NCBI GenBank assembly: GCA_041179585.1
Contig: JBEGTB010000007.1
Coordinates: forward strand, 1 to 42,798
Length of the DNA: 42,798 nucleotides
Source: Actinomycetota bacterium
Lineage (GTDB): Bacteria > Actinomycetota > Actinomycetes > S36-B12 > UBA5976
Reading direction: 5' to 3'
Shown here: piece by piece, positions 13,181 through 35,073 of the stretch
Position numbering within the stretch: position 1 is the first letter of the stretch
Layout: the number at the start of each line of letters is the position of its first letter
Made by a program: the position numbers and the translations under genes
The notes under the pieces: generated by a model
Told to the model about the DNA's origin: nothing
What the model saw: the letters and a program-made list of their open reading frames with translations, nothing else
Databases searched by the model: none

Positions 13181-13256
13181 TCTTATCTCCTCGCTAGGAA
13201 ATGGGTAACCTACGCGGTAACCCTTCGGATCAACGTTTGCCGATCCGAAACTTTAT

Positions 13257-15230: not shown

Positions 15231-16261
15231 GAATGTGCTCCGCCACCGATTAATTTCAAAATATCATTTGCTGTGATGTAGCCGATTGACTTACCTGCAT
15301 CCATTACTTCAACAGGTCCAGTTGCAGCAAGGACAACTGGTGTTGCTTCTCTGATGATCATTGTGGACTGGACTGACTTATCTGACGGAAGTTCACCACT
15401 TGCCAGTGGGCGAGCGATTGATTTAACGGTTAACACGTGTGACTTGGGAACATCTCTAGTGAAGTCAGCTACATAATCATCAACTGGATTTCCAATCAAT
15501 TCCTCAGCGGTACCCATTTGTACTATTGCGCCATCGCGCATGATGGCAATGCGATCGCCAACCTTTAGCGCTTCATCTAAATCGTGGGTAATAAAGATCA
15601 TGGTTTTACCAAGTTCTTTTTGCAGACGAATTACCTCAGCTTGCATGTCGCGACGGATGAGCGGGTCAAGTGCAGAGAACGGTTCATCCAAGAACATCAC
15701 ATCTGGGTCAACCGCAAGTGCACGAGCAAGACCAACACGTTGCTGCATACCGCCAGATAACTGTTCAGGGTAAGCCTGCTCAAAACCATTTAGACCAACT
15801 AATTCGACAACCTCTTGCGCGCGGGCATGACGCTTTTCTTTGCTGACTCCGTTAATTTCAAGTGCATAAGCAATGTTGTCAATCACTTTGCGATGAGGAA
15901 GAAGTCCGAAGTTTTGGAAAACCATTGAAAAGCGGGTTCGGCGAAGTTCACGAAGGCGACTTGCTGATGCCTCAAGAATATCTTCGCCATCCATAACGAT
16001 ATGGCCTGAAGTTGGTTCAATTAATCTAGTTAAGCAGCGAACTAAAGTTGATTTACCAGATCCAGATAGACCCATCACAACGAATACTTCACCTGGGGCA
16101 ACATCAAAAGACACATCCCGAACGGCAGCTGTGTTACCAGTTTTTTCCCGAAGTTCTGCACGTGGCAATGCTGCATCTGGGCTACCAACTAATTTTTCTG
16201 GGTTCGGTCCAAAAACCTGCCAAAGATTACGAACAGAAATTGCGCTTGCTTTGTTTGTCAT
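15227..16261 (-). CDS. proV: Glycine betaine ABC transporter ATP-binding protein
   Basis: Walker [27 protein letters not shown] and FITHDL; ATGA overlap with the permease. Confidence 0.93.
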
Positions 16262-16263
16262 TT

Positions 16264-17772
16264 CTAGTTGCCCTTCGGGTCTGCAAACCAGTCAGATCTA
16301 GCAGGGGAAAGGTTCTGCCAGATGTGCTTATGTTCTAGATATTCTGCCAAGCCAGCCTGGCCTAATTCTCGTCCTATGCCAGATTGCTTGTATCCACCCC
16401 ATTCAGCCTGTGCTACGTAAGGGTGAAAATCATTGATCCAGATGGTTCCGTGGCGAAGTTTTCTGGCCACTCGCTGAGCCTTATCTGCATCTTCAGTCCA
16501 GACAGCACCTGCCAGACCATAAATAGTGTCATTGCCAAGTGCAATCGCTTCTTCTTCGGTATCAAAAACTTCAATGGTCATAATCGGACCAAATGACTCA
16601 TCTTGCACACATTTCATTTTTGTATTGCAGTTATCTAAAACTGTTGGGCGATAAAAGTAACCATCTTGCAATTGCGGTTCGCTTGGCCGTTTGCCGCCAG
16701 CGCGAAGTGTTGCACCTTCAGCAATCGCATCTTTAACAAACTGTTCAATTTTGTCGCGGTGAGAAGCACTTATCAGCGCGCCAGTCTCAGCATTTTCATC
16801 ATGGGAGCCACCAAGAACAATTGCATCAGCCCTGCGAGCAACTTCAGCAGCAACTTTTTCATGGATACTGCGCTCAACAAGTAAGCGAGTGCCAGCTGAA
16901 CATACTTGGCCAGAGTGTAAGAAAACTGCCGTTAGCGCATTGTCTATTGCTGCATCTAAATTACTATCAGCAAAAATAATGTTTGGATTCTTTCCACCAA
17001 GTTCAAGTGCGATCTTCTTAACTGTTTCAGATGCGTTAGCCATCAAACGTTTACCAGTTACCAATCCGCCAGTGAAAGAGACCATGTCAACATCAATGTG
17101 AGTGCTAAGTGGTCCACCTGCAGTAGCGCCAGCACCCATAACCAAGTTGGCAACACCACCTGGAACGCCAGCCTCAACAAGAACATCCATCAACATTGAA
17201 GTTGTGCTTGGGGTTAGTTCACTTGGCTTAATTACAAATGTGCAACCGGTTGCAAGCGCAGGTGCAATTTTCCATGATGCTTGAAGCAGGGGATAGTTCC
17301 ATGGAGTGATCATCGCAACGACACCAACTGGTTCACTTACGATTGTGCTTCGCACACCATCGCGGCCAGTATCAACTTCACGTTCGTGAGCGCTTGGGGC
17401 TTGATTGGCGAAATATCTGAAAACCGAAATGATGTCATCTAAGTCATAGCGAGCTTCAACGATTCGCTTTGCGGTATCGCGCGATTCAGCTTCGGCGAAT
17501 AATTCTTTGTCACGTTCCAGAATGTCAGCGATGCGATCAAGTATTTTGGCTCGCTGTTCGCCAGTAAAAGAAGTCCAGTGACCATCATCAAATGCTTTGC
17601 GAGCTGCTTTAATTGCAAGTTCAGTATCGCTAGCCGTTGCTTCAAAGAACTCACCAACTGGCTTGGCGTTAGCTGGGTGCAAAATTGTGCGCTTTTCACC
17701 AGATGAACTTGGTACGCGTTTACCGTCGATAAATAAGGAATCGATATTGCTATAGCCCATTTGGTAAACCAC
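16264..17772 (-). CDS. betB: Betaine aldehyde dehydrogenase (exact start uncertain: GTG 17772 or ATG 17760)
   Basis: [21 protein letters not shown], catalytic GQVCSAG and ESFGP; context with betA and the transporter. Confidence 0.85.
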
Positions 17773-18703: not shown

Positions 18704-20371
18704 CTAGAAGAGGCCTACTACTAAGCCATCTTGAAGTTTGATGGTGTTTGCCGCAGGAACCTTAGGCAAACCAGGCATCGTCATGATGTCACCTGTGACA
18801 ACAACGATAAATTCAGCGCCTGCACTTAAACGAACTTCGCGGATTGCCACAACGTGGTTTGAAGGGGCGCCCTTTAAGTTCGGGTCAGTTGAGAAAGAGT
18901 ACTGAGTCTTCGCCATACAAATTGGGAATTTTCCATAGCCAGCATCTTCGAAACTCTTTAACTGATCGCGAACGGACTTGTCAGCCACGATGTCATCAGC
19001 ATCGTAAATGCTTGTGGCAATGGTCTTAACTTTGTCCCAAAGCGATAGTGAATCGTCATACAGCGGAGCAAATTGTGCAGTGCCTGATTCAGCCAGTGCT
19101 ACAACTTTTTCAGCAAGTTCTTTAGTGCCCTTGCTACCTTCAGCCCAGTGAGTACAGCGAACTGCATCCACACCAAGTTCAGCACAGTATTTCTGAACAG
19201 CAGCGAATTCAGCATCTGTATCAGTAGTGAAGTTGTTTACGCCGACTACTACTGGAACACCAAACTTCTTAACGTTGCGGATGTGACGACCAAGGTTAGC
19301 TAGACCTGCTTCAACAGCAGCTACGTTTTCTTTTCCTAGGTCATCCTTAGCAACGCCGCCGTGCATCTTTAGCGCACGAACAGTGGCCACGATCACAGCA
19401 GCACTTGGTGCAAGACCTGCCTTGCGGCATTTAATGTCGAAGAACTTTTCAGCACCAAGGTCAGCACCGAAGCCAGCTTCAGTAACAACGTAATCGCCAA
19501 GGCGAAGAGCGGTGTCAGTAGCCAAAACTGTGTTGCAGCCATGTGCGATGTTGGCAAATGGTCCACCGTGAACAAACGCTGGATTATTTTCAAGTGTTTG
19601 TACCAAGTTAGGCATTAGTGCATCTTTAAGTAGAACTGTCATCGCACCATTTGCGTTTAGTTGGCTAGCTGTGATTGCAACTTTGTCGCGGGTGTAACCA
19701 ATAACAATGTTGCCAAGACGGCGTTCTAAGTCATCTAGATCCATGGCTAAACAAAGTATTGCCATAACTTCAGATGCAACAGTGATATCAAATCCGGCTT
19801 CACGTGGGTAACCATTTCCTGGTCCACCAAGAGCTGCAGTGATTTGGCGAAGTGCACGATCGTTCATGTCGATTACTCGCTTCCAAGCAATACGACGAAC
19901 ATCAATACCAAGTTCATTACCCCAGTAGATGTGATTATCGATCATTGCTGAAAGTAAGTTGTGGGCTGCGCCAATGGCATGGAAGTCACCAGTGAAGTGC
20001 AGGTTGATATCTTCCATTGGAATTACTTGGGCGTAACCGCCACCTGCGGCGCCACCTTTCATACCAAAACTTGGACCAAGTGATGGTTCGCGCAGACAGA
20101 TGATTGCATTCTTACCGATTGCATTTAGGCCATCACCAAGACCAACAGTTGTTGTGGTCTTACCTTCACCTGCAGGGGTTGGTGTCATGGCAGTAACAAG
20201 AATTAACTTGCCGCGTTCTTTTTTCTTGATTGAGTCAATGAATTCCATTGACACTTTGGCTTTAGTTGGGCCGTAGTTCAAGATCGCTTCAGCTGGAATC
20301 CCAATTCGAGAGGCTATTTCACCAATTGGTTTAATTTTGCCTTCGCGGGCAATTTCGATATCTGATTTCAC
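18704..20371 (-). CDS. fhs: Formate--tetrahydrofolate ligase
   Basis: [54 protein letters not shown] and MTMPGLP motifs. Confidence 0.98.
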
Positions 20372-21807
20372 GCCGTTAGCTCCTTTGATCGTTTGGCCAC
20401 ATATTCATCAAGTTCTTCTTTTATCGCAATGTCGATTGCTGGTGCTTCATATTCCTCCAGCATCTTTTTGTAAATTTCATTGGCCCTGGTGGCGGTATCT
20501 TTCTTCCCGTTGCGGCTCCAGCGATCGTAGTTATCGCTAGAAGATAAGAACGGGCGGTAGAAACAATCACGGAATCGTTCCATAGTGTGCATTGTGCCAA
20601 GGAAGTGACCACCATGACCGGCTTCAATGTGGGCATCAAACCCAAGAGATGCTTCATCAATTTCAAATGGAGTGAATTCAACTTCCATCATCTGAACAAC
20701 TTCCATGTCCATAATGAATTTCTCATAGCTTGCAACTAAGCCACCTTCAAGCCAGCCAGCTGAGTGCAAAACAAAGTTAGTTCCAGCAAGGAATGTTGCG
20801 TGCATGGTCATTAGCGTCTGGTAACCAGCCTGAGCGTCAACGGTTTGAGCAGCATTTAAGCCACCACCACCGCGGAATGGAAGGCCAAAGTGACGGGCAA
20901 TCTGGCCGGTACACAAAAGGCCAATTGCTGATTCTGGAGTACCAAACATTGGTGAACCTGATTGCATGTCAATGTTTGAAAGGAAAGATCCAAATACAAC
21001 TGGACAGCCTGGGCGAATTAACTGAGATAGCGCAATACCGGAAAGTGCTTCAGCAATTTGTTGAACAAGTGATGCCGGAATAGTTACAGGTGACATCGCG
21101 CCCATTAGCAAGAACGGAGTCAAGATAACTGCTTGGTTAGCCCGGCTGTATTCAAACTGGGATTCAAGCATGCGATCATCCCAGCGCAGAGGGCTGTTGC
21201 AGTTAATTAGTGAAATTGTTGCCGGTGCTTTTTCAATAGCTTCACGGCCACCAAAAAGAATTTCGCTCATCTTGATTACATCGCGTGCATTCTGAGCAGA
21301 CACGACGTTACCCATGTATGGCTTATCAGTAAGCGTTTGCAAACGGTAAGTCATATCTAAGTGACGGGTATCTAGGTGAGTATCTTCTGGTTCGCAGATA
21401 ACACTGCTTGCTACATCCATTGTTGAAAACATCTGGCTGAGTTTTAATAGGTTTTCGTAATCGCGAAGTTTGGCATCGCGACGTACGCCATCTTCAAGAA
21501 CGAAAGGAGAGCCGTAGTTACCAGCGAAAACCATGTTTTCGCCACCAATGCGAACTGAGTTCTTTGGGTTACGCGCTTGCAAATCAAATTCTTTTGGAGC
21601 TTTAGCAACCTGAGCCAAAATAAATTCAGGGTCGAACTTAACGTTGTTACCTTCAACTTTTTGGCCAGCTTTACGGAAAAGGTCTAATGCCTCTTCGCTT
21701 AAGTACTCGATGCCTATTTCAGAAACAATTCGGCGCCAACCTTTATCCAAGGCAGCCATTGCATCCTTGGAAAGAATCTCAAAGCGCGGGCTTTTATTCT
21801 GGAACAT
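20368..21807 (-). CDS. mtgB: Trimethylamine methyltransferase (MttB/COG5598) family protein without pyrrolysine; probable glycine betaine:corrinoid methyltransferase
   Basis: [36 protein letters not shown]...VDAQAG, LHSAG.LE and GGHFL..HT; no in-frame amber codon; substrate inferred from context. Confidence 0.85.
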
Positions 21808-21855
21808 TTATTCTCCAAATCGCTTGACGAACTGTAGTCAGAGTACACTACTATA

Positions 21856-21871
21856 TGGAACAGGTGTTCCA
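21856..21871. promoter_or_regulatory. Palindromic operator in the mtgB / IclR-2 divergent region
   Basis: TGGAACA-GG-TGTTCCA perfect inverted repeat matching the known IclR motif class TGRAACA-N1-2-TGTTYCA; directly after TTGACG (21824) ... TACTAT (21849). Confidence 0.8.
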
Positions 21872-21933
21872 GATGGTGAAAATTATCTAGGGTACCTAAA
21901 ACAGGGTTCCACCTTATTAATAAGGAGACAAAG

Positions 21934-22689
21934 ATGGAAGAGAAATCCGTAACTGGTACTCAAGCCATCGATCGCGCCTGTGATTTATTAGTTCGAGTTC
22001 TAGATAGTGAAGAACCTCAAACATTAAGCGAATTAGTGGGGGCAACTGGACTTGCCAAAGGAACCACTTCACGCATTCTTAATGCACTTGAACGAGCTGG
22101 TCTATTAACCCGAAGCCAATTTGGTGGCTTTGAAGCTGGCCCAGTTCTCAACCAATTTGCAGTAAAGGGCGGTGCTTATACCGCTCTTATTAATACTGTC
22201 ACTCCAGCCATGGAGGGTATCGCCCAAAAGACTAAAGAAACAGTCAGTTTGGCAGTTGCTGGTCATGAAGGTATCGACAATATCGCCCAGGTTGCAGGTG
22301 ACTATATTCTTGGAAGTCGCAATTGGGTTGGCCAAAGTGTTCCGCGCCATTGCAGCGCCGCAGGAAAAGTTTTAATGGCGCTTGCTGGCGCAAGCGCCCC
22401 ACAAGTATTGAATCCACGTACCCCAGAGACAATCACCGATCAAAAAGTTTTAGATGAAGAACTTCGCAAAGTTCGCGAACGAGGCTATGCCGTAATTCGC
22501 AATGAACTTGAACCAGGTTTGGTGGCGATTGCAGTTCCGGTCTATAGCGAAAAGGGCAAAGTAATTGCTGCCCTTTCTGTTACTGGGCCAGCAGAACGGA
22601 TTGCCCCAGAAAATGAATCTCGCATTGCCTCGCTAATGCAGCGAGAATTATCAGGAAACGCAAGACCACAACATGAAGGAGCGGCATGA
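21934..22689 (+). CDS. IclR family transcriptional regulator (IclR-2)
   Basis: QAIDRA..LL, LSEL...TGL.KGT.SRIL, HCSAAGK, RGYA and AALSVTGP; AAGGAG RBS. Confidence 0.95.
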   Translation: MEEKSVTGTQAIDRACDLLVRVLDSEEPQTLSELVGATGLAKGTTSRILNALERAGLLTRSQFGGFEAGPVLNQFAVKGGAYTALINTVTPAMEGIAQKTKETVSLAVAGHEGIDNIAQVAGDYILGSRNWVGQSVPRHCSAAGKVLMALAGASAPQVLNPRTPETITDQKVLDEELRKVRERGYAVIRNELEPGLVAIAVPVYSEKGKVIAALSVTGPAERIAPENESRIASLMQRELSGNARPQHEGAA

Positions 22690-23342
22690 CCCCCGATGAA
22701 ATCCTGACGGAAATGTACGAAGCAACCATGGCCGGAAATGGTCCGCGCGTACTTGAACTAACAAATGAAGGTCTTGGCCAGGGTATGTCACCTGACACCA
22801 TACTTTTTGATTCACTTATCCCAGCGCTTGAAGAAGTGGGTGCACGCTTTGAACGCGGCGACTACTTCGTTCCTGAAATGCTTATTGCAGGTCGTGCGAT
22901 GAGTGGCGCGCTAGACATTCTTCGCCCGCTACTTGCAGACACCGGCGCCGAAACTGTTGGCACATTCCTAATGGGCACGGTTAAAGGCGATGTGCACGAT
23001 ATTGGCAAGAACTTAGTGAACATCATGCTGGAAGGCGCTGGCTTCCAAGTTATTGATCTTGGCGTTCAGGTTGCCCCTGAAAAGTTTGTGGATGCAATCA
23101 AGGAGCATCAACCTGATGTTGTTGGTATGTCAGCATTCCTAACTACGACAATGCCAATGTTCAAAGTCAACATTCATGAAATTTCTAAAGCTGGCATGCG
23201 CAATGACGTGATCATTATGGTTGGCGGCGCCCCGGTAACTCAAGAATATGCAGATGTGGTTGGTGCTGATGGCTACGCAGCGGATGCGGCAACTGCAGTT
23301 CGCAAGGCTAAAGAACTAATTGCAGCCAAGCGCGGTGCATAA
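22686..23342 (+). CDS. mtgC: Cobalamin-binding corrinoid protein (MttC/MtgC type)
   Basis: Cap domain (VG.RFE.G.YFVPEML) plus B12 motif GDVHDIGKNLV, SAFLTTT and VGGAP; 218 aa standalone protein. Confidence 0.92.
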   Translation: MTPDEILTEMYEATMAGNGPRVLELTNEGLGQGMSPDTILFDSLIPALEEVGARFERGDYFVPEMLIAGRAMSGALDILRPLLADTGAETVGTFLMGTVKGDVHDIGKNLVNIMLEGAGFQVIDLGVQVAPEKFVDAIKEHQPDVVGMSAFLTTTMPMFKVNIHEISKAGMRNDVIIMVGGAPVTQEYADVVGADGYAADAATAVRKAKELIAAKRGA

Positions 23343-23352
23343 GTAATACGCC

Positions 23353-23736
23353 ATGGCTGAATTCATCGCGTCTCTTGAACACGTCGTCAAAGGTCCAGTT
23401 TGGGGCTGTCAGATGTGTGGTCAATGTGTTTTGCACTCAACCGGTATGACTTGTCCAATGAATTGTCCAAAGACACTTCGCAATGGACCATGTGGTGGAG
23501 TGCGCGAAGACGGACACTGTGAAGTTAAACCTGAAATGCGTTGTGTTTGGACAAAAGGCTTCGAGCGAACTCAAGCCTGGCCTTTGCCTAATACCTGGAA
23601 AGAAGAATTTAACCATTTGCGTCCACCAGTTGATAACCGACTAAAAGGTGGATCATCTTGGATCAACTTTTTTACCAAAAGAGATAAGTGGACACCAAAA
23701 GGCTGGGCAGAGACAACTGAAGAGGCCAAGCATTAA
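23353..23736 (+). CDS. metV: MetV-like Cys-rich protein (MTHFR C-terminal/small-subunit domain)
   Basis: CQMCGQC......CPMNCPK..RNGPCGG....CEV.....CVW pattern with 8 Cys; stop abuts the metF start. Confidence 0.85.
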   Translation: MAEFIASLEHVVKGPVWGCQMCGQCVLHSTGMTCPMNCPKTLRNGPCGGVREDGHCEVKPEMRCVWTKGFERTQAWPLPNTWKEEFNHLRPPVDNRLKGGSSWINFFTKRDKWTPKGWAETTEEAKH

Positions 23737-24648
23737 ATGTCCACGCTTGAATACAAATTAACTAAAACCAGCGAACAAGTTTTCACCGCTGAATTTCCAT
23801 CACTTGATGGAAATGCCATGGAAAAAGCTAAAAAACATGCAGATCGTTTTCGTGGTTGGTTTGATGGCGTTAATGCAACGGACAATCCAGCTGCGCATGC
23901 TCACGTTTCAAATGTGGCCTCTTCGATTGCAATGAAACAACTTGGCTTGGAACCGATCATGCAAGTTGTTTGCCGTGACAAAAATCGTTTGGCTCAGCAG
24001 GCAGACTTAGTGAGCGCAGCAATGTTTGGTGTTGAAAATTTCGTTGCGTTAACAGGAGACGATGTGACTGCTGGTGATGAGCCAGAAGCCCGTCGTGTAT
24101 TTGATTTGGACGGCCCGCAATTAGTTCAGTTGATGAGCACTCTGAAGCGCGGAAAATATATGTCTGGCCGCAAACTAGATCCAGCGCCACATATGTTTAT
24201 TGGGGCAGTGGAAAATCCAGGTGCACCGCCATTTGAATACCGTGTGCAGCGCGTTGCTAAAAAATATGCAGCCGGCGCGAAATTCTTACAATTGCAAATC
24301 TGTTACCACCAAGATCGGCTCGAGCGTTTTTGTGCTGGGGTTAAAGCCGCTGGCCTTGAAGGCAAAATTGCCATCATTCCAACCATTGTTTTAGTAAAAG
24401 GCGCTCGTCCACTTCACTTTATGCACGAATCTGTTCCAGGAATTGATATTCCAGCGAATGAAATTGCACGTGTGGAGAATGCGACCGATCCAAGTGAAGC
24501 TGCTTACCAACAGACTTTGGAATTTGCTAAGCATGCCTTAGCGCAACCAACAGTTCGCGGATTACACATCACCGACTTTAGACATGACGACACATTAGAT
24601 CGACTAATGACTGATCTTGGCCGAGTGCGCCAGGTGACACCTAACTAA
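23737..24648 (+). CDS. metF: Methylenetetrahydrofolate reductase
   Basis: TAEF (catalytic Glu position), NATDN, EPIMQ..CRDKN, LTGD, KK..AGA.F.Q.Q and GLH motifs. Confidence 0.88.
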   Translation: MSTLEYKLTKTSEQVFTAEFPSLDGNAMEKAKKHADRFRGWFDGVNATDNPAAHAHVSNVASSIAMKQLGLEPIMQVVCRDKNRLAQQADLVSAAMFGVENFVALTGDDVTAGDEPEARRVFDLDGPQLVQLMSTLKRGKYMSGRKLDPAPHMFIGAVENPGAPPFEYRVQRVAKKYAAGAKFLQLQICYHQDRLERFCAGVKAAGLEGKIAIIPTIVLVKGARPLHFMHESVPGIDIPANEIARVENATDPSEAAYQQTLEFAKHALAQPTVRGLHITDFRHDDTLDRLMTDLGRVRQVTPN

Positions 24649-24661
24649 GAAAGGGAGCACT

Positions 24662-25513
24662 ATGCACACAATAGTTAGCTCAGCTAGCAAGACAGTAACG
24701 ATCGGTCATGATCAGCCGTTTTGTATTATCGGCGAACGCATAAACCCAACCGGACGCAAGCTTTTCCAAGAACGTTTGCGCAATGACGACCTTTCAACAA
24801 TCAACATTGACGTAGCTGATCAGGTTGCTGGTGGCTGCGACATGCTTGATGTGAACATGGGTGTTCCATTAACTGATGAGCCAGCACTACTTGCAAAAGC
24901 AATCAAACTAGTTCAGTCGTTAACTGACCTTCCAATTTGTATTGACTCTTCTGTAATTGAAGCACTTGATGCAGGTCTTGCAGTCTACGAAGGTAAAGCA
25001 TTGATTAACTCAATGACTGGTGAAGATGATCGCATGGATGCAATTTTGCCTTTGGTTAAGAAGTACGACGCAGCAATCCTTGCTCTGCCAAATGATGAAA
25101 CTGGCATTCCAATGACAGCCGATGAGCGCATGCCAATTGTTGAAAAGATTGTTCGCCGCGTTGAAAAAGAAGGTATTCCACTCGAAAACCTCTTAATCGA
25201 TCCACTTGCGATGCCAGTTGGCGCAGAACCAGAAGCTGTTAAGCACACACTTGAAACGATGTACCGAGTGCGCGAAAAGTACGGCCTAAATATGTCAATT
25301 GGCGCATCAAATGTGTCTTTTGGTCTACCAAATCGCCATGCACTAAACGCAGCATTCATGCCAATGGCAATGTCAATGGGTCTAACTTCAGCAATCATGG
25401 ATGGCCGCACTAAAGAAGTTGTGCAGTCAGTTCGCGCAGCTGATTTACTACTTGGCTTAGATGCCTGGGGTGGCAACTGGATTACCAACTTCCGCGAGTC
25501 AAAAGCCGAGTAA
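24662..25513 (+). CDS. Methyl-corrinoid:tetrahydrofolate methyltransferase (standalone MetH pterin-binding domain, AcsE/MtgD-like)
   Basis: IIGERINPTGRK, LDVNMG, PICIDSS, LINS, IDPL, GASNVSFGLP.R and SAI.D motifs. Confidence 0.9.
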   Translation: MHTIVSSASKTVTIGHDQPFCIIGERINPTGRKLFQERLRNDDLSTINIDVADQVAGGCDMLDVNMGVPLTDEPALLAKAIKLVQSLTDLPICIDSSVIEALDAGLAVYEGKALINSMTGEDDRMDAILPLVKKYDAAILALPNDETGIPMTADERMPIVEKIVRRVEKEGIPLENLLIDPLAMPVGAEPEAVKHTLETMYRVREKYGLNMSIGASNVSFGLPNRHALNAAFMPMAMSMGLTSAIMDGRTKEVVQSVRAADLLLGLDAWGGNWITNFRESKAE

Positions 25514-25560
25514 TCAAGGCAATTAAACTTTCTTAAGACAATCTTTGAACGAAGGATATT

Positions 25561-27423
25561 GTGAGCGACCAAGATAACCAAAGCACGCAAGTTGCCGCTG
25601 GTCTTGGTCGCGTCACAATCAACTTCACTCCAAGCAATCAAGAATTTCGTGTTCCTCCAGGCGTCAGTGTTTTCGATGCTGCCTCTTGGAATGGTCTAGC
25701 GATTGATTCAACTTGCGGTGGCCACGGCACCTGCAAGAAATGCAAAATTCAAGTTCTTGAAGGAGAAGTTCCAATATCCAGACTGGATATTCGTGCATTC
25801 ACACCGGAACAACTTAAAGATGGCTGGCGCCTTGCATGTGTGGCAAGAGCCAATAGCAATCTAAAAGTTGATGTGCCCCCACTCGCTACACGGCCAAAAG
25901 CTGCAACTGTTGGTGTTGGTCGCCAAGTTATTTTGCGTCCAGGTGTTCAAAAACGCTACGTGGAATTAACTGAACCAACTTTGCACGATCAGCGAACCGA
26001 TATCGATCGCCTTCGCGATGCAACTGGAGATCTGGAATTTGAAGCTGAATTAGCGGTCTTTAGAACGTTGCCAACTGTTATTCGTCAATCAAACTTTAAA
26101 GTCACTGCAGTTGTAGTTGATGAAAAATTAATCGCAGTTGAACCAGGTGACACAACTGAACAAAACTATGCCGTTGGTATCGACCTTGGCACCACAACAG
26201 TTGTAGCAACTTTGCTCGATTTAGTTACTGGAACACCGATGGCCGTTAAGTCCATGCTTAACAAACAGCAGCCATTTGGCGCAGATGTAATTTCTCGAAT
26301 TTCCGCTGCCATGATGGACCCGCAAGCCGGGCCGCTAATGCAAAAGGCAGCGCTTGATACTTTCAATGAATTGATTGCTGAAGTTTGCACTGAAGCGCGA
26401 ATTAGTGCGCAGCAAATTTATGCACTTTCCATTGCAGGCAACGCAACCATGGTTCAACTATTACTTGGTGTTGATCCAGAACCTGTTGGTGTAGCGCCAT
26501 TTATTACTGCTTCACAAAAGTGGCCAACTATGTCAGCAAGTGAAATTGGTATTGATGTGCTTGGCACTGCCCGTTGTTATTTGTTCCCAAGTTTTGGCGC
26601 TTATGTTGGCGGCGACATTGTTGCTGGCGTACTTGCAACTGGAATGGATCGCGACAAGCGAACACGTCTTTTAATTGATGTTGGCACTAACTGTGAAATT
26701 GTTCTAACGAACGGCGACACAATCCTTTCAACTGCAGCGCCAGCTGGCCCAGCGTTTGAAGCTGCTTCTATCGCATGTGGCATGCGCGCTGCAGATGGCG
26801 CGATCGAAGTTGTTCAGGTTAAAGATGGCGAATTAGTGCTGGGTGTAATCGGCGATGCTACGCCAATTGGTCTTTGTGGCTCTGGTTTAGTTGACGCCGT
26901 TTATGCGCTTAATAAAGCAGGATTACTTGATAATTCAGGTCGCTTTGTCACAGACGATGAAGCAAAACAAATCGCACCAAAACTTGCTGACCGGTTAATT
27001 ACCAGGGCAGAAGGTGACCGTGCATTTGTGCTTTACGGCGAAGGTGAAACACCAGTGTTCCTTTCCCAGCGTGATGTTCGCGAACTGCAGTTCGCAAAAG
27101 CTTCAATTGCTACCGGCTGGCGCTTACTGCTTGAAGAACTAAATCTTAAAGATGATGATGTGCAGCAGGTATTGCTTGCTGGATCATTTGGCTCGTACCT
27201 TTCACCGACATCCGCTGTTGGTATTGGCTTAGTTCCAAAACTTCCAGTTATGCGAATTGTTAGCGCAGGAAACGTTGCTGGTGAAGGTGCCAAGATGGTT
27301 TTACTTTCTGACACCGAACGCCATGGCGCAGATGCACTACTTGACGAAGTAACTTACGTTGAACTTTCCGATCGTCCAGATTTCCAAGAAAAATTCTTTG
27401 TCGAATTGGCATTGCCATCGTGA
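25561..27423 (+). CDS. ATP-dependent reductive activator of corrinoid enzymes (RACE/RACo; 2Fe-2S + ASKHA, DUF4445)
   Basis: N-terminal CGGHGTCKKC...RLAC ferredoxin; IDLGTTT, GADVISRI, IDVGTN.E, GPAFE, GLCGSG, LAGSFG and AGN motifs. Confidence 0.92.
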   Translation: MSDQDNQSTQVAAGLGRVTINFTPSNQEFRVPPGVSVFDAASWNGLAIDSTCGGHGTCKKCKIQVLEGEVPISRLDIRAFTPEQLKDGWRLACVARANSNLKVDVPPLATRPKAATVGVGRQVILRPGVQKRYVELTEPTLHDQRTDIDRLRDATGDLEFEAELAVFRTLPTVIRQSNFKVTAVVVDEKLIAVEPGDTTEQNYAVGIDLGTTTVVATLLDLVTGTPMAVKSMLNKQQPFGADVISRISAAMMDPQAGPLMQKAALDTFNELIAEVCTEARISAQQIYALSIAGNATMVQLLLGVDPEPVGVAPFITASQKWPTMSASEIGIDVLGTARCYLFPSFGAYVGGDIVAGVLATGMDRDKRTRLLIDVGTNCEIVLTNGDTILSTAAPAGPAFEAASIACGMRAADGAIEVVQVKDGELVLGVIGDATPIGLCGSGLVDAVYALNKAGLLDNSGRFVTDDEAKQIAPKLADRLITRAEGDRAFVLYGEGETPVFLSQRDVRELQFAKASIATGWRLLLEELNLKDDDVQQVLLAGSFGSYLSPTSAVGIGLVPKLPVMRIVSAGNVAGEGAKMVLLSDTERHGADALLDEVTYVELSDRPDFQEKFFVELALPS

Positions 27424-28025
27424 CAAACACCAAGGGGAATGTTGCAGTGATTGCTTGTGGTGCGCTGGCATCACACGTGCACGAGATTGCAGCTAGAAAT
27501 CACTGGGATTTACATGTTGAACCAGTTAATCCGTTATTGCACAACAGGCCAGAAGGTATCGCACCTGAAGTTGAAAAGTTAGTTAACGAACTTCAGGGCC
27601 AGCATCAAAAAGTGGCTATTGCATATGCAGACTGTGGAACTTATGGCGAACTGGACAAAGTTTGTGACAAGTATTCAGTTGAGCGTTTGGCTGGCGAACA
27701 TTGTTATGACGTATTTGCCACCGCTGAAAAAATGCGTGAGGAATTTGCCAAGGAGCCTGGCACTTTTGTTTTGACAGATTATTTAGTTAAGTCATTTCGC
27801 CGTAGCGTGATGAAAGAAATGGGACTTGAGAAATACCCAGAACTACGGGATGACTATTTCCATTCTTATAAGCGCATAATGTGGTTAGCCCAGCACCAAA
27901 CTGAAGAATTAACCCAAGCAGCAAATGAAGCCGCTGAACTACTTGGCCTGCCGCTTGAAATAGTTCAAGTGGGGGACCAATACTTAGAAGAACAACTAGT
28001 AGCCCTGATCGGGGAGTCAAAGTGA
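27420..28025 (+). CDS. DUF1638 family protein
   Basis: IACGAL, LHN.P, YADCGT, HCYD.F and GTF.LTD motifs; GTGA overlaps on both sides; the family commonly accompanies RACE genes. Confidence 0.8.
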   Translation: MTNTKGNVAVIACGALASHVHEIAARNHWDLHVEPVNPLLHNRPEGIAPEVEKLVNELQGQHQKVAIAYADCGTYGELDKVCDKYSVERLAGEHCYDVFATAEKMREEFAKEPGTFVLTDYLVKSFRRSVMKEMGLEKYPELRDDYFHSYKRIMWLAQHQTEELTQAANEAAELLGLPLEIVQVGDQYLEEQLVALIGESK

Positions 28026-28483
28026 CCCAATTCGTAGTTGATGACTTAACTGCAGAACTTGAACAGTTCCGCGGTGACAATTTTGCAGTGCTTCGGGCAT
28101 TGCAAAAGACTCAAGAGGTCCTTGGCTTTGTTCCAGATTCAGCAATTGATGTTGTGGCAAAGGTTTGTAATGTGTCTCGCGCTGAAGTTTATGGCGTGTT
28201 CACTTTCTATAGCGATTTCAAATCAATTCCACCTGCAAAATGCATCGTGAAAGTTTGCGTAGCTGAGGCATGTCAAGCAAATGGCAGTCGCGAACTAATC
28301 GAAGAGCTTCACAAAAAAGGTTTTGATGTTCATAAAGGCACCAAACAAGGCGATGTTCAGATGGAACAGACTTTCTGCTTAGGTAACTGTGCACTTGGCC
28401 CAGCAGCGCTTATTAATGGCAAGCCAGTTGCCAGAGCCACAGCAAAATCACTTATTGCCAAAGCAAATGAGGAAGCCCGATGA
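28022..28483 (+). CDS. fdsG: NAD-dependent formate dehydrogenase gamma subunit (NuoE-like, 2Fe-2S)
   Basis: SRAEVYGV.TFY, C.AEACQA.G and FCLGNCALGP motifs. Confidence 0.9.
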   Translation: MTQFVVDDLTAELEQFRGDNFAVLRALQKTQEVLGFVPDSAIDVVAKVCNVSRAEVYGVFTFYSDFKSIPPAKCIVKVCVAEACQANGSRELIEELHKKGFDVHKGTKQGDVQMEQTFCLGNCALGPAALINGKPVARATAKSLIAKANEEAR

Positions 28484-29979
28484 AGGTATTTGTTCCAGGT
28501 GACTCAACTGCACTTTCTGTCGGTGCAGATGAAGTTGCAGATGCATTAGCAAAGGCTGGCGCAGAAGTTGTCCGTACCGGCTCTCGCGGTATGTTCTGGC
28601 TTGAACCACTAGTTGAAGTTCAAACAGATGCGGGCAGAGTTGGTTATGCAAACGTTGAACCAAGTGATGCTAAAGATTTACTAAATGGCAAACTAACGAA
28701 GAAATCAATTGGTGTAGTTGACGAATACGACTGGATTAAAAAACAACAGCGCGTAACATTTGCTCGCGTTGGCATCATTAATCCAGTTTCAGTTGATGAT
28801 TATGAAGCACACGGCGGCTTAATTGGTTTACGAAAAGCACTTTCACTTCCTTCAGAACAAATTGTCGAAGAAGTAACAGAGTCTGGCCTTCGTGGTCGAG
28901 GTGGCGCGGGATTCCCAGCAGGTATTAAGTGGAAAACCGTATTAGGTGCGACCGCAGATCAAAAATATGTTTGCTGTAACGCTGATGAAGGCGATAGTGG
29001 AACATTTGCTGATCGCATGCTCATGGAAGGCGATCCACTAACTCTAGTTGAAGGCATGATTATTGCTGGTATTGCAGTTGGCGCAACTAAAGGTTTAATT
29101 TATTGCCGCTCTGAATACCCGCATGCAATTGCTGTTCTAAATAAAGCCATTGAAAATGCATATGCAGCAGGTGTTCTTGGTAAATCAGTTTGTGGTTCAC
29201 ACTTCGCATTTGATCTAGAAGTTCGAAGTGGTGCTGGTTCTTATGTTTGCGGTGAAGAAACTGCAATGCTTGAAAGCCTTGAAGGAAAGCGCGGCATGAT
29301 TCGTCCAAAGCCGCCAATTCCAGCACTTAGTGGTCTTTATGGAAAACCAACTGTCATTAATAACGTAATGACTTTGGCAGCAGTGCCGATGATCATGGCA
29401 AATGGCGCAAAGGCTTACCAAGAAATTGGTGTTGAACGATCACGCGGAACTCAAGTTTTCCAATTAGCAGGAAACATCGCTAAAGGTGGAATTGTTGAAA
29501 CTGGATTTGGTATCACCCTTGGTGAACTAGTTGATGGTTTTGGCGGAGGCACAAATAGCGGTCGCCCGATTAAGACAGTTCAAATCGGCGGGCCGCTTGG
29601 CGCTTACCTAGATAAAAATTCATGGGATGTACCGATGGCATATGAATCACTTGCAGCAGCTGGCGGCATGCTTGGCCATGGTGGTGTTGTTGTTTTTGAT
29701 GACACCGTAAACATGGCTGCCCAGGCAAGATTTGCCATGGAATTCTGTGCCGAAGAATCTTGTGGCAAGTGCACACCATGCCGTATCGGCTCAACCCGTG
29801 GGGTTGAAGTCATCGACAAAATTGTGGCTGGTGAAAACCAAGCCGAAAACCTTGAATTACTTGAAGACCTTTGCGAAGTTATGACTGACGGTTCACTATG
29901 TGCAATGGGCGGGTTAACGCCACTTCCAGTGCGTAGCGCGCTTAAGTTATATCCAGCAGACTTTGGATTAAGGAGATAA
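28480..29979 (+). CDS. fdsB: NAD-dependent formate dehydrogenase beta subunit (NuoF-like, FMN/4Fe-4S)
   Basis: GSRG.FWLEPLVEV, SGLRGRGGAGFP, CNADEGDSGT, GAGSYVCGEET and ESCGKCTPCR...SLC motifs. Confidence 0.93.
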   Translation: MKVFVPGDSTALSVGADEVADALAKAGAEVVRTGSRGMFWLEPLVEVQTDAGRVGYANVEPSDAKDLLNGKLTKKSIGVVDEYDWIKKQQRVTFARVGIINPVSVDDYEAHGGLIGLRKALSLPSEQIVEEVTESGLRGRGGAGFPAGIKWKTVLGATADQKYVCCNADEGDSGTFADRMLMEGDPLTLVEGMIIAGIAVGATKGLIYCRSEYPHAIAVLNKAIENAYAAGVLGKSVCGSHFAFDLEVRSGAGSYVCGEETAMLESLEGKRGMIRPKPPIPALSGLYGKPTVINNVMTLAAVPMIMANGAKAYQEIGVERSRGTQVFQLAGNIAKGGIVETGFGITLGELVDGFGGGTNSGRPIKTVQIGGPLGAYLDKNSWDVPMAYESLAAAGGMLGHGGVVVFDDTVNMAAQARFAMEFCAEESCGKCTPCRIGSTRGVEVIDKIVAGENQAENLELLEDLCEVMTDGSLCAMGGLTPLPVRSALKLYPADFGLRR

Positions 29980-29981
29980 AC

Positions 29982-32831
29982 ATGACCTTGTTATCTGATC
30001 CTCGTGGCTTATCGCCAATCCGTGATGGCATTGGTGAACCAGATTTTGGTACGCCAAAGTCCACTTCAGATGTGACCGTCACTCTAACCATTGATGGCTC
30101 ACCAGTTTCAGTTCCAGCTGGAACATCAATCATGCGCGCAGCTGGTGAATCTGGTTGTTCGATTCCCAAACTTTGTGCAACTGACTCTCTTGAACCATTT
30201 GGTTCATGCCGCATGTGTTTAGTCGAAATTGATGGTCGCAAGGGAACACCTGCTTCATGTACAACTCCGGTTGAAGAGGGAATGGTTGTTCGCACCCAGA
30301 CTGCAAAGCTGGGCAAACTTCGTCGCAATGTGATGGAACTTTATATTTCTGATCATCCGCTTGAATGTTTAACTTGCGCTGCAAATGGTGACTGTGAACT
30401 TCAGGATATGGCTGGTGTGGTTGGTCTACGCGATGTTCGCTACGGATACGAAGGTGAAAATCACCTTGGCGCAGTTAAAGACCAGAGCAACCCTTACTTT
30501 GATTTTGATAGCAGCAAGTGCATCGTTTGTAATCGTTGTGTTCGCGCCTGCGATCAGATCCAAGGAACACTTGCCTTAACCATCGAAGGCCGAGGCTTTA
30601 ATTCAAAAGTAAGCCCAGGCGGACTTAATTTCTTATCAAGTGAATGTGTTTCTTGTGGTGCTTGCGTTCAGGCATGTCCAACCGGAACTCTAGAAGAAAA
30701 AAGCGTTATTGAACTTGGTATGCCAACTCGCACAGTTCAAACAACCTGTGCTTACTGTGGTGTTGGCTGTACTTTCAACGCTGAACTTCGCGGCGATGAA
30801 TTAGTTCGTATGGTGCCTGCCAAAACTGGTGGCGCTAATGAAGGCCATTCATGCGTTAAAGGCCGTTTCGCTTTTGGCTACGCCAGCCACAAAGACCGCA
30901 TCCTTTCACCAATGATTCGCGAAAAAATCACTGATGAATGGACTGAAGTCTCTTGGGATGAAGCCATTACATACGCTGCCACCAAGTTCAAAGAGATTCA
31001 GGCTAAATACGGTGACAACTCAATTGGTGGCGTGACTTCATCTCGCTGTACAAACGAAGAAATCTTCACCGTACAAAAAATGATCCGCACAGCTTTCGGT
31101 AACAACAACGTTGATACCTGTGCTCGCGTATGTCACTCACCAACAGGTTTTGGATTAAGTTCAACATTTGGAACTTCAGCTGGTACCCAAGACTTCAAGT
31201 CTGTTGGCAAATCTGATGTGATCTTGCTAATTGGTGCTAATCCAACAGATGCCCACCCAGTATTTGGTTCACGCCTAAAGCGTCGCCTTCGTCAAGGTGC
31301 AAAGCTAATCGTTGTTGACCCACGCAAGATTGATCTTGTTGAATCAGCACACGTTAAGGCTAATCACCATCTACAACTTCAACCAGGCACAAACGTTGCA
31401 GTAATCAATGCACTTGCGCACGTAATTGCGACTGAAGGTTTGGCTGATAAGAACTTCATCGCTGAACGCTGCGATAACGAAGCATTTGATCGCTGGATGA
31501 AATTTATTTCTCTTCCAGAAAATAGCCCTGAAGTTGTTGAAGCACAGTCCGGAGTTCCTGCCGAAGAACTTCGCAAGGCCGCTCGCTTGTTTGCCACAAG
31601 TGGAAACGGTGCAATTTATTACGGTCTAGGTGTTACCGAACACAGCCAAGGTTCAACCATGGTTATGGGCATGGCAAACCTTGCTATGGCAACTGGAAAC
31701 ATCGGTCGCGAGGGTGTTGGAGTTAACCCGCTTCGTGGACAGAACAACGTTCAGGGATCTTGCGACATGGGGTCTTTCCCACACGAACTTTCTGGTTACC
31801 GTCACGTTTCAGATGATGCAGTTCGCGAACAGTTTGAAACATTATGGGATGTAAAACTTCTTCCTGAACCAGGTATGCGCATTCCAAACATGCTGGATAA
31901 CGCAATTTCTGGTGAATTCCGTGGCATGTTCGTGCATGGCGAGGACATCGCTCAATCAGATCCAAATACTAAGCACGTCATGGCCGCTCTTGAAGCAATG
32001 GATCTAGTTGTTGTTCAAGACTTGTTCATCAACGAAACAGCTAAGTTTGCTCACGTATTTTTCCCAGGAACTTCGTTCCTTGAAAAAGATGGCACATTCA
32101 CCAACGCTGAACGTCGCATTAACCGCGTCCGTCCAGTAATGGCACCTAAGAATGGCAAACAAGAATGGCAAATCATTTCTGAGCTAGCAACTGCAATGGG
32201 TTACCCAATGCATTATGACAATGCTGCTCAAATCATGGATGAAATTGCAGCGATCACCCCAACATTTAAGAATGTCAGCTTTGAACTTCTTGATCGCGTT
32301 GGCAGCTTGCAGTGGCCAGTAAATGATGCAGCTCCGCAAGGAACACCAATCATGCACGTTAATGGTTTTGTTCGCGGTAAGGGCTTATTTGTTGAGACAC
32401 CATTTGTACCAACAGAAGAACGTGCCAATCGCAAGTTCCCACTGCTATTAACAACAGGGCGCATTCTTAGCCAATACAACGTTGGTGCACAGACTCGTCG
32501 CACAGCGAATAGCACTTGGCATCAAGAAGATGTTTTAGAAATTCACGAATCCGACGCGCAAATGCGCGGAATCGTCGATGGCCAGAAAGTTGCGATTTCA
32601 AGTCGTATCGGTGAGACAGTTATGCGAGCAGAGGTTTCGGCTCGCGTTCCAGCTGGCGTTGTATACACAACTTTCCATCATCCGATAAGCGGCGCGAATG
32701 TGATTACAACTGAATTCTCTGACTGGGCAACCAACTGTCCAGAATACAAAGTGACCGCAGTTGAAATCAGACCAGCTGATTCAAGCCAGGATGCAACCAA
32801 TTCTCTTGATGATGTCTTGATGAAGGCTTAA
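29982..32831 (+). CDS. fdsA: NAD-dependent formate dehydrogenase alpha subunit (Mo-bis-PGD, Cys ligand)
   Basis: IPKLC..GSCRMC and multiple Fe-S motifs, CAYCGVGC, active-site DTCARVCH (Cys, not Sec), LRGQNNVQG and CPEYKV. Confidence 0.95.
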   Translation: MTLLSDPRGLSPIRDGIGEPDFGTPKSTSDVTVTLTIDGSPVSVPAGTSIMRAAGESGCSIPKLCATDSLEPFGSCRMCLVEIDGRKGTPASCTTPVEEGMVVRTQTAKLGKLRRNVMELYISDHPLECLTCAANGDCELQDMAGVVGLRDVRYGYEGENHLGAVKDQSNPYFDFDSSKCIVCNRCVRACDQIQGTLALTIEGRGFNSKVSPGGLNFLSSECVSCGACVQACPTGTLEEKSVIELGMPTRTVQTTCAYCGVGCTFNAELRGDELVRMVPAKTGGANEGHSCVKGRFAFGYASHKDRILSPMIREKITDEWTEVSWDEAITYAATKFKEIQAKYGDNSIGGVTSSRCTNEEIFTVQKMIRTAFGNNNVDTCARVCHSPTGFGLSSTFGTSAGTQDFKSVGKSDVILLIGANPTDAHPVFGSRLKRRLRQGAKLIVVDPRKIDLVESAHVKANHHLQLQPGTNVAVINALAHVIATEGLADKNFIAERCDNEAFDRWMKFISLPENSPEVVEAQSGVPAEELRKAARLFATSGNGAIYYGLGVTEHSQGSTMVMGMANLAMATGNIGREGVGVNPLRGQNNVQGSCDMGSFPHELSGYRHVSDDAVREQFETLWDVKLLPEPGMRIPNMLDNAISGEFRGMFVHGEDIAQSDPNTKHVMAALEAMDLVVVQDLFINETAKFAHVFFPGTSFLEKDGTFTNAERRINRVRPVMAPKNGKQEWQIISELATAMGYPMHYDNAAQIMDEIAAITPTFKNVSFELLDRVGSLQWPVNDAAPQGTPIMHVNGFVRGKGLFVETPFVPTEERANRKFPLLLTTGRILSQYNVGAQTRRTANSTWHQEDVLEIHESDAQMRGIVDGQKVAISSRIGETVMRAEVSARVPAGVVYTTFHHPISGANVITTEFSDWATNCPEYKVTAVEIRPADSSQDATNSLDDVLMKA

Positions 32832-34221: not shown

Positions 34222-34260
34222 GGGATTAATCTACCTGCAAACGTGTGCGATGCTTTATTT

Positions 34261-35073
34261 GTGCAAAATATGCAACTATCTCAGATTGATTCAATAGTTG
34301 TTGCCGGCGGTAAGGCCACTCGTATTGGCGGCATTGATAAAGCAATGCTTCCCCTAGGTCTTAATCAAAAAACTTTATTAGCTTCAGTTGTTGCCAGTTG
34401 CCCTGGAAAAGTTATTGTTGCAGGCTCCAATCGACCAGAGATAAATGGCGTTACCTGGGTGGATGACTTAAGTGCTGATGGGGGACCAGCTGCGGGAATT
34501 TGGGCGGCTCTTACCCAAATTAATTCTGAATATGTATTCATCAGTGCAGGTGATCAACGAATAAATAGCGATCAAGTAAATCAGATTTGCTTGGCTGCCC
34601 TTGGCCATGATGGCGCTTGGGCTATTAGGGAAAATGGCCAAGGCCAACCACTTCTGGCCTGTGTTAAATCGCGACTAATTAAAGATTTACTGCAGGAGTC
34701 AAAAGGTGTTAACGCTTCACCTTTACGATTAATGCAACAGTTAAATATGGTTGAAGTGAAAGTGGCAACTAGCGAAGTATTAGATATTGATACTTGGGCT
34801 GATGCCATCAATGCGGTTAAGGAATCTGGAATGAGTGAAGTAACTCCTGTTTGGTTAAAACAAGTTGCCGCAACTTTAGGTATTCCTGAAACTGAAATAC
34901 CAGTTAATGCACTTCTTGATCTAACCCGCGATGTTGCCCACAATGTTGAGCGCAAATCTGCACCTCTAACCACATTCTTAATTGGCCTTGCTGCCGGAAA
35001 AACTGGAGCAAGTGAAAAAGAATTAATTGAAAAAGTTGAGCAGGCAATAAAAGACTGGACCCCAAGTGAATAA
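34261..35073 (+). CDS. mobA: Molybdenum cofactor guanylyltransferase fused to a C-terminal small domain (DUF6457-like)
   Basis: VAGG.ATR.GG.DK, GP.AG, QPL and DIDTW motifs followed by W.......LG......LLDLTRDVAH.V.R..APLTTFL.G. The start is likely GTG 34261 or ATG 34270, since the ORF-track start 34174 overlaps moeA. Confidence 0.82.
   Translation: MQNMQLSQIDSIVVAGGKATRIGGIDKAMLPLGLNQKTLLASVVASCPGKVIVAGSNRPEINGVTWVDDLSADGGPAAGIWAALTQINSEYVFISAGDQRINSDQVNQICLAALGHDGAWAIRENGQGQPLLACVKSRLIKDLLQESKGVNASPLRLMQQLNMVEVKVATSEVLDIDTWADAINAVKESGMSEVTPVWLKQVAATLGIPETEIPVNALLDLTRDVAHNVERKSAPLTTFLIGLAAGKTGASEKELIEKVEQAIKDWTPSE

Follow-up and report, generated by a model that had tools for sequence, protein, structure and literature searches.

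A predicted MtgBCD-type cobalamin-dependent glycine betaine demethylase in a freshwater actinobacterium

Introduction

How does an aerobic actinobacterium take the first methyl group off glycine betaine when neither a betaine-homocysteine methyltransferase (BHMT) nor a Rieske GbcAB monooxygenase is encoded beside the steps before and after? The question is raised by a stretch of 42,798 nucleotides from an Actinomycetota bacterium (GTDB lineage Bacteria; Actinomycetota; Actinomycetes; S36-B12; UBA5976; assembly GCA_041179585.1, contig JBEGTB010000007.1, positions 1 to 42,798, forward strand), called the window below. A preliminary description of the window had proposed that an MttB-family protein free of pyrrolysine (Pyl), encoded with its partners at 20368-28025, fills this step as a complete betaine:tetrahydrofolate (THF) methyltransferase in an organism that also uses O2-dependent oxidases. 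In this study, we found that gene context, residues, fold and co-occurrence support this proposal. We put at roughly three in four the probability that the region encodes a cobalamin-dependent glycine betaine demethylase of the MtgBCD type, in an aerobic, genome-streamlined freshwater actinobacterium that scavenges vitamin B12. The argument runs from gene content, residue conservation, fold and co-occurrence to a probable substrate, direction of flux and dual role.

The concept itself was published in 2025 for aerobic marine bacteria (Mausz et al., PNAS 2025, PMC12478193; Hammer et al., preprint 10.64898/2025.12.19.695462). Mausz et al. reported that mtgC and mtgD of Ruegeria pomeroyi were required for growth on betaine and for methionine synthesis, and that MtgB-type proteins, MetF2, RamA and DUF1638 rose on betaine. 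They described mtgBCD in SAR116, SAR324 and SUP05, mostly without MetH, and assigned 5% of marine mtgC reads to Actinomycetota (PMC12478193). Deletions of mtgB1, mtgC and gbcAB have been described in Phaeobacter inhibens (10.64898/2025.12.19.695462). Kang et al. (2017, PMC5301498) reported no cobalamin synthesis in acI bacteria; among their four cultured strains, acI-A7 alone had formate dehydrogenase (FDH), genes for the molybdenum cofactor and a transporter for betaine/proline. Betaine use by acI-B has been predicted from network analysis, in an account whose statements on betaine name no mechanism (Hamilton et al. 2017, PMC5574706). In a search of article texts, we found no literature linking an MttB-family system to betaine use by acI, Nanopelagicales or Actinomycetota. 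New here are the host phylum, the freshwater habitat and the natural modular variants within a genus.

Results and Discussion

The MttB-family protein

PF06253 (MTTB) matched a 479-residue protein almost end to end (profile positions 25-499 of 500; 621.7 bits), and its gene, mtgB-like below, is the sole PF06253 gene of the genome. The reading frame of 479 codons was uninterrupted, with no internal stop; the lack of an internal amber codon (UAG) had been stated in the preliminary description. The equivalog model of Pyl MttB, TIGR02369, scored 282.9 bits against a cut-off of 525, which places the protein outside MttB proper. In a HMMER alignment, Leu317, in the ten-residue motif at 308-317, lay opposite the pyrrolysine of Methanosarcina barkeri MttB (7xcl, printed X, chain position 334), and the segment RGGGGLN here corresponded to RSGGGLN in Desulfitobacterium hafniense MtgB (2qne/9yce), with the Arg and the Leu common to both. 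The Leu at the pyrrolysine position and the Arg just upstream, as in Desulfitobacterium MtgB, had both been pointed out before and held in these alignments; Arg312 aligned with the carboxylate-binding Arg312 of that enzyme.

The best sequence matches in the PDB were 4yyc (431 bits), MtgB (2qne, 410 bits; 9yce, 408 bits) and Pyl-MttB 7xcl (135 bits). An AlphaFold2 model of the protein (pLDDT 97.3) superposed on betaine-bound MtgB 9yce with a TM score of 0.97 and 42% identity, on 4yyc with 0.96 and 42%, and on 7xcl with 0.93 and 25%. The model thus predicted the TIM-barrel fold of the solved members of the MttB superfamily (TM 0.93-0.97 to 9yce, 4yyc, 2qne and 7xcl). At the level of sequence, the scores and gene calls are strong family matches, and a chance pattern is excluded.

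Genomic context and co-occurrence

Betaine is suggested as the substrate by two lines of context. The only MttB-family gene is set among betA/betB, an OpuA-type transporter, dimethylglycine (DMG) oxidase and soxBDAG, and it co-occurs with betaine genes across the genomes of the genus. As the preliminary description held, the steps before and after betaine demethylation are encoded: betA, betB, DMG oxidase and soxBDAG were all found, and the DMG oxidase scored 772 bits to N,N-dimethylglycine oxidase 1pj5 versus 357 bits to DMG dehydrogenase. By family assignment, these genes cover the whole path from choline to glycine, in which each of the three methyl groups enters THF and is oxidised to CO2.

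The partner functions reported earlier, namely a corrinoid protein, a THF methyltransferase and a RACE activator, were also confirmed nearby (Table 1). The corrinoid protein, MtgC, carries the motif GDVHDIG, which conforms to DxHxxG. It scored 201 bits to the NCBIfam model MtgC_2, below the cut-off of 370, and matched 1y80 (186 bits) and MttC 7xcn (147 bits) in the PDB. The pterin methyltransferase, MtgD, scored 315 bits to NF005719, above the cut-off of 259, and 156 bits to MeTr 2yck. The RACo-type activator combines a 2Fe-2S domain with an ASKHA domain and scored 438 bits to the AcsV model, below its cut-off. A DUF1638 protein, named by Mausz et al. (PMC12478193) as part of corrinoid reactivation, is encoded next to it.

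The genus was compared in 21 genomes, the present one counted. The MttB gene was found in 17 of them. BetA was present in 14 of these 17 and in none of the four genomes without the gene, and a DMG oxidase orthologue (at least 70% identity) in 14 of 17 and in one of four; this single match was a contig-end fragment in a 70%-complete genome. A 95%-complete genome, G030, had no match to MttB, BetA or DMG oxidase. Across the order, a close MttB homologue occurred in 38 of 151 sampled genomes, the present one included; with the present genome left out, it occurred in 22 of 32 genomes of the family and 12 of 15 of the genus.

We also surveyed the best 80 related loci from named Actinomycetota genomes, many of which end at contig ends. 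The flanks contained mtgC in 75 loci, where it lies beside mtgB, mtgD in 72, RACo in 70 and DUF1638 in 61, with mtgC, mtgD and RACo together in 70. A betA, betB or OpuA ATPase gene of at least 55% identity lay within 10 kb in 55 loci, and metV and metF were nearby in 15. The nearest loci in named genomes came from freshwater metagenome-assembled genomes (MAGs) labelled Candidatus Nanopelagicales or Actinobacteria (MtgB identity 79-88%), followed by Nocardioides, Phycicoccus, Nostocoides, Asanoa and Pseudonocardia (70-73%). The orthologues of Nocardioides, Phycicoccus, Asanoa and Pseudonocardia stood in the same gene order.

The window is one contig (C7) of a 1.17-Mb MAG, G000, in 101 contigs. 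Twenty sequencing runs contained the region 20368-28025 near-whole (79-97% of sampled words); they come from 11 studies and are for the most part metagenomes of freshwater or aquatic origin, so the arrangement recurs in independent samples. The genome also encodes COX1, on another contig. By its genes for a DMG oxidase-type enzyme, heterotetrameric sarcosine oxidase and COX1, the organism is aerobic.

Betaine or another amine

MtgB of D. hafniense holds betaine through Tyr97, Phe356, Arg312 and His348, as established by mutagenesis and a ligand-bound structure, and the F356L exchange raises its Km about 800-fold (Picking et al. 2026, PMC13080624). We mapped these contacts by PDB alignment, in which the chain index of 9yce equals the native number minus 2, an offset verified for each of the four. 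Of these contacts, three were kept (Tyr97 as Tyr98, Arg312 as Arg312 and His348 as His348), so that both carboxylate-binding residues are identical here. At position 352 the protein has Trp, a form also seen in 4yyc, where MtgB has Ile (segment HTAGILQYFM). Tyr98, Arg312, His348, Trp352, Gly355 and Gly356 were invariant in all 121 sequences formed by the query and its best 120 close homologues; these homologues are 67-91% identical and are unnamed or labelled 'trimethylamine methyltransferase', with no characterised anchor among them. The difference in the predicted binding pocket, Trp352/Gly356 versus Ile/Phe356 in MtgB, is new here.

The alternative that survives best is that the protein acts on another amine, such as proline betaine, carnitine, gamma-butyrobetaine, choline or phosphocholine, and that a BHMT-like protein encoded on another contig, C9, makes DMG. 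Several observations weigh in this direction or against a betaine demethylase. Phe356 of MtgB is replaced by Gly356, and the aromatic pair Tyr97/Phe356 is not conserved. DSSP assigned residues 348-357 of the model to an irregular loop. In a FastTree phylogeny, the window protein belonged to a Trp352 clade, and sequences with the MtgB-like segment AGILQYF formed another. The tree comprises 101 full-length representatives, drawn from 150 of 8115 matches, and these include no named characterised enzyme (MtgB, MtpB, MtcB, MtyB, MthB or Rhodobacterales MtgB1/2). Position 98 was aromatic in just nine of the 34 Trp352-type representatives, so the clade probably holds several specificities. The nearest NCBIfam model of the 293-residue C9 protein, NF005718, is named betaine--homocysteine S-methyltransferase (299 bits, cut-off 338). 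ORFs of 343-367 residues with an N-terminal Rieske domain and no PF00848 match occurred in seven of the 21 genus genomes. The MAG is 78% complete, which makes every gene absence in it provisional. No RNA run among those listed contained 20368-28025, which is not evidence either way.

The active site, whose modelling the preliminary description had proposed, keeps three contacts in a predicted fold close to that of MtgB and has Gly356 in place of Phe. We hypothesise that Trp352 may act as a second cage residue. Among the 101 representatives, an aromatic residue stood at 352 only in 38 (Trp in 34), at 356 only in 45, at neither position in 18 and at both in none. The 352-type and 356-type are two clades, and their exclusivity is therefore no independent evidence of compensation. 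The argument that 352 and 356 lie on one face of a helix, which would have favoured a simple swap of the aromatic residue by one turn, was dropped, because the modelled segment is not helical.

The alternative routes were searched for in the window and beyond. No window ORF matched the homocysteine S-methyltransferase or Rieske oxygenase families, in agreement with the preliminary description, which had also considered that bhmT or gbcAB elsewhere in the genome might carry the flux. A GbcA-type oxygenase (PF00848) was found in none of the 21 genus genomes, the incomplete present one included, where the Rieske matches were just a ferredoxin-sized small fragment and a 371-residue ORF on the COX1 contig. 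The Rieske ORFs of 343-367 residues occurred in genomes with and without the MttB gene, two of them on a contig shared with betaine genes, and none in the present genome. Rieske-domain ORFs were located at G113:C6, G113:C8:4058-4315, G129:C10:36964-37167, G145:C94, G157:C56, G156:C186 and G161:C88.

A bhmT-like gene does exist elsewhere. The genome has two homocysteine methyltransferase genes, one of the MmuM type (NF007020, 349 bits, above cut-off) and the one on C9. The C9 protein, below the cut-off of its BHMT model, scored 163 bits to the homocysteine domain of Thermotoga maritima MetH versus 79 bits to human BHMT, and it looks like a MetH homocysteine module, MtgE. Mausz et al. (PMC12478193) argued that the Sinorhizobium meliloti type of 'Bhmt' supplies the homocysteine module, MtgE, to a split methionine synthase. 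G030 retains a C9-type protein without betaine genes, and neither of the two MetH-bearing genomes of the genus has one. Immediately upstream of the MtgE-like gene on C9 is an ORF of 97 residues (L003:1877-2170, minus strand) with a match of 61 bits to PF13769 'Virulence_fact'. G030 and G007 have the same pairing (48-64% identity), again with a SpoU methylase gene on the opposite flank.

Taken with the position of the only MttB-family gene inside a betaine pathway, the genus-wide co-occurrence with betA and DMG oxidase, and the retention of Tyr98, Arg312 and His348, these observations make another amine an unlikely substrate, and glycine betaine the preferred one.

A core shared with methionine synthesis

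The same partners may have a second role. MetE was not found in the 78%-complete genome, and neither was MetH; the B12-domain matches were MtgC and mutase-like or weak ones, leaving MtgC as the sole methyltransferase-type corrinoid protein found. In the genus, MetH was found only in G145 (full-length) and G157 (in two pieces), and neither of these has MttB or any split module. MtgC- and/or MtgD-like modules were present in the remaining 19 of the 21 genomes, and no genome combined MetH with split modules. An MtgE-like match of at least 150 bits was present in 14 genomes. At the corresponding locus, G030 has ppc, folD, mtgC, mtgD and RACo and no further gene of the island, and it keeps its MtgE gene among the same neighbours.

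The methylenetetrahydrofolate reductases (MTHFR) of the genus are of two types. Canonical proteins of about 250-285 bits adjoin metH in G145 and G157. A divergent MetF of about 90 bits was found only beside the mtg cluster, and the MetF/MetV pair only with the MttB gene. The present genome shows the divergent type only; the missing canonical MetF is probably due to the incomplete assembly. These patterns are consistent with an accessory betaine island that is added to a core, the split methionine synthase made up of MtgC, MtgD, RACo and MtgE. Because G030 keeps mtgC-mtgD-RACo without betaine genes, MetH and the split modules exclude each other, and MetE was not found, MtgC, MtgD and RACo probably also serve with the separate MtgE as the split methionine synthase of the cell.

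It could be argued from the same facts that the corrinoid protein, pterin methyltransferase, RACo and DUF1638 form a split methionine synthase only, and that the MttB gene is a mere neighbour with no working link; G030 and the complete exclusivity between MetH and the modules would suit this. We consider it very improbable. MttB-family proteins are presented only as methylases of corrinoid proteins in the accounts of Mausz et al. and Picking et al. (PMC12478193, PMC13080624), MtgC is the only such partner found, the divergent MetF/MetV pair accompanies the MttB gene alone, and mtgC adjoins mtgB in nearly all surveyed loci.

The supply of cobalamin appears to be external. The corrin-ring genes CobS and CbiC were not found in the genome, and CbiC was found in none of the 21 genus genomes. 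A BtuFCD-like set (L094:1259-4074) of Peripla_BP_2, FecCD permease and ABC ATPase is preceded upstream by a cobalamin riboswitch (RF00174, 39.5 bits; G000 C8:6618-6745, minus strand). With no corrin-ring gene found, this arrangement fits B12 uptake. In the window, an Rfam search gave no B12 riboswitch and no family besides two tRNAs.

We tentatively extend the preferred betaine demethylase to a wider proposal, with the odds slightly against it. In freshwater acI-type Actinomycetota, which would be unable to make B12, the MtgC/MtgD/RACo-DUF1638 core would be the only methionine synthase and indispensable. This core would become a betaine demethylase where accessory genes (mtgB, metVF, bet, sox, DMG oxidase, fhs and FDH) are added to it as an island. 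A cage of Tyr98 and Trp352 would replace Tyr97 and Phe356, as a second structural solution for the same substrate.

That cob(I) is oxygen-sensitive is established chemistry, and it might suggest that the system is a remnant, or works only at low oxygen and is minor in oxic lake water. This too is most unlikely: all frames are intact, the stretch recurs in many independent runs, the key residues are kept in every close orthologue compared, a dedicated reactivation system (RACo and DUF1638) is encoded, and a homologous system works in aerobically grown Rhodobacterales (PMC12478193; 10.64898/2025.12.19.695462).

Proposed mechanism and relation to known systems

In the proposed mechanism of the betaine demethylase, choline would be oxidised by BetA and BetB, or betaine imported through the OpuA-type transporter. 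The MttB-family protein would bind betaine by Tyr98, Arg312, His348 and probably Trp352, and methylate the Co(I) form of MtgC, releasing DMG. The pterin methyltransferase would pass the methyl group to THF, while RACo with DUF1638 would re-reduce oxidised Co(II). Methyl-THF would then be oxidised to CO2 via MetVF, FolD, Fhs and FDH, and the remaining two methyl groups would be taken off by DMG oxidase and sarcosine oxidase.

By its predicted parts, the system is of the MtgBCD(E) kind and not of the D. hafniense MtgB clade, to which it was not assigned because one of the four defining contacts of that enzyme is absent. As in the MtgBCD(E) systems of Rhodobacterales (R. pomeroyi, P. inhibens), a pfam06253 protein, a corrinoid protein and a pterin methyltransferase stand together, with a second MetF, a RamA/RACo-type activase, DUF1638 and a separate homocysteine module; the likeness is one of the parts list. 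Genomes with these systems usually lack MetH and MetE, and this genus has the same exclusivity of MetH and split modules. In other marine taxa, the genes often adjoin those of DMG and sarcosine demethylation and one-carbon oxidation, as here. Unlike the hosts of Mausz et al., which are Alpha-, Gamma- and Deltaproteobacteria, the present host is an actinobacterium of fresh water. It also differs in having all parts but mtgE in two divergent operons and a MetV and MetF pair as its catabolic MTHFR, and no cobalamin synthesis genes were found.

The D. hafniense MtgB/MtgC/MtgA system shares the non-Pyl TIM barrel, Leu at the Pyl position, the three-component logic and a RACo-type activase. It differs in having Phe356 for Gly and Ile for Trp352, in its clade among the 101 representatives, and in belonging to an anaerobe. 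The S. meliloti 'trimethylamine methyltransferase' 4yyc, the best PDB match, shares Trp352 and Gly355/356. Its structure contains an unknown ligand and has a longer N-terminus (query residue 3 lies opposite chain residue 45), and we found no text establishing its function. Pyl MttB/MttC of M. barkeri (7xcl, 7xcn) share the superfamily and fold (TM 0.93) and a homologous corrinoid partner (147 bits). In contrast to this window, they rely on UAG/Pyl and have trimethylamine as the substrate, and MttB is only 24-25% identical (135 bits).

If this reading is correct, cobalamin-dependent betaine demethylation, described in marine Proteobacteria, also occurs in freshwater Actinomycetota, which are abundant, and in many genera of soil (Nocardioides, Phycicoccus, Asanoa, Pseudonocardia). 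Betaine use and methionine synthesis of B12-auxotrophic lake bacteria would then be tied to an external vitamin supply. It may also explain why FDH, molybdenum cofactor genes and the betaine transporter were reported only in acI-A7 of the four acI strains (PMC5301498). For studies of how members of the MttB superfamily select their substrates, the Trp352/Gly356 pocket offers a concrete target. With the concept already in print, what is gained is range and detail, and not a new kind of system.

Arrangement of the locus

A 126-bp spacer separates mtgB, read leftward, from the IclR gene iclR2, read rightward, and on either side of it the genes form an operon-like string (Table 1). The leftward order is mtgB, fhs, an IclR regulator gene, betB, the OpuA-type ATP-binding cassette (ABC) transporter, DMG oxidase, soxB-D-A-G, folD and betA. 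The rightward order is iclR2, mtgC, metV, metF, mtgD, RACo, DUF1638 and three FDH subunits, then moeA, mobA and fdhD. The starts of the FDH subunits overlap, and they therefore apparently belong to the same operon.

Table 1. Coordinates and family matches of features in the window
Feature	Position	Strand	Basis
Flavodoxin_2 (NAD(P)H:quinone oxidoreductase-like)	1657-2190	-	
Betaine pathway: betA, folD, soxG, soxA, soxD, soxB, DMG oxidase, OpuAC/permease/ATPase, betB	2255-17772	-	family matches
betA	2255-3904	-	
soxBDAG (heterotetrameric sarcosine oxidase)	4806-9608	-	
soxD	8079-8360	-	
DMG oxidase	9610-12036	-	
betB	16264-17772	-	
fhs (formate-THF ligase)	18704-20371	-	PF01268, 886.8 bits; 4-bp overlap with mtgB stop
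mtgB-like (non-pyrrolysine MttB-superfamily methyltransferase, 479 aa)	20368-21807	-	PF06253
Perfect palindrome TGGAACAGGTGTTCCA, candidate IclR operator	21856-21871	.	sole zero-mismatch site in window, mtgB-iclR2 spacer
iclR2 (IclR-family regulator)	21934-22689	+	IclR_C, 119 bits; HTH_IclR, 36 bits; 4-bp overlap with mtgC start
mtgC-like (corrinoid protein, 218 aa)	22686-23342	+	B12-binding and B12-binding_2 domains
MetV-like (Cys-rich small subunit, 127 aa)	23353-23736	+	PF12225 (MTHFR C-terminal), 85 bits
Divergent MetF (MTHFR)	23737-24648	+	PF02219, 90 bits
mtgD/mtgA-like (pterin-binding methyl-corrinoid:THF methyltransferase)	24662-25513	+	Pterin_bind, 93 bits
RACo-type ATP-dependent reductive activator of corrinoid protein	25561-27423	+	Fer2, RACo_linker, Raco_middle, RACo_C_ter
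DUF1638 protein	27420-28025	+	PF07796, 88.8 bits
NAD-type FDH: NuoE-like, NuoF-like, molybdopterin subunits	28022-32831	+	Pfam
moeA, mobA-like, fdhD (molybdenum cofactor and FDH maturation)	33058-35884	.	
tRNA gene	35905-35977	-	
ORF of 132 aa	36688-37086		no Pfam match
tRNA gene	39575-39647	+	

An IclR homologue was present in 79 of the 80 related loci. The spacer contains the palindrome TGGAACAGGTGTTCCA, a candidate IclR operator. A similar palindrome, TGGAACCTATGTTCCA, was found 104-151 bp upstream of mtgB in nine of 24 related loci examined. These nine are the closest relatives (79-88% identity), namely all eight with enough upstream sequence, plus L058.

We propose that the divergent MetF oxidises methyl-THF. 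The small MetV-like protein is very rich in Cys, and the cluster gives no evident electron acceptor for methyl-THF oxidation by MetV/MetF in an aerobe.

Two further fusions of DAO and GCV_T are encoded in many genomes of the genus (for example G007:C3:17272-19674 and G007:C3:39249-41630). Their identity to the DMG oxidase is 38-40% and 29-32%, and they may be other N-methyl amino acid demethylases; the DMG oxidase is the one copy in the present genome. A second MttB-family paralogue, 41% identical to the window protein, is present in larger genomes from another family of the order (for example G046:C27:38566-39975 and G021:C24:46132-47526), which suggests further methylated-amine substrates there.

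Towards the right end of the window, the two tRNA genes enclose an RNase T-like exonuclease, the 132-residue ORF, an ABC1 kinase and a pirin. At the left end, the Flavodoxin_2 gene lies between ppc and betA. It is missing from the G030 locus together with betA, and it may belong to the betaine island.

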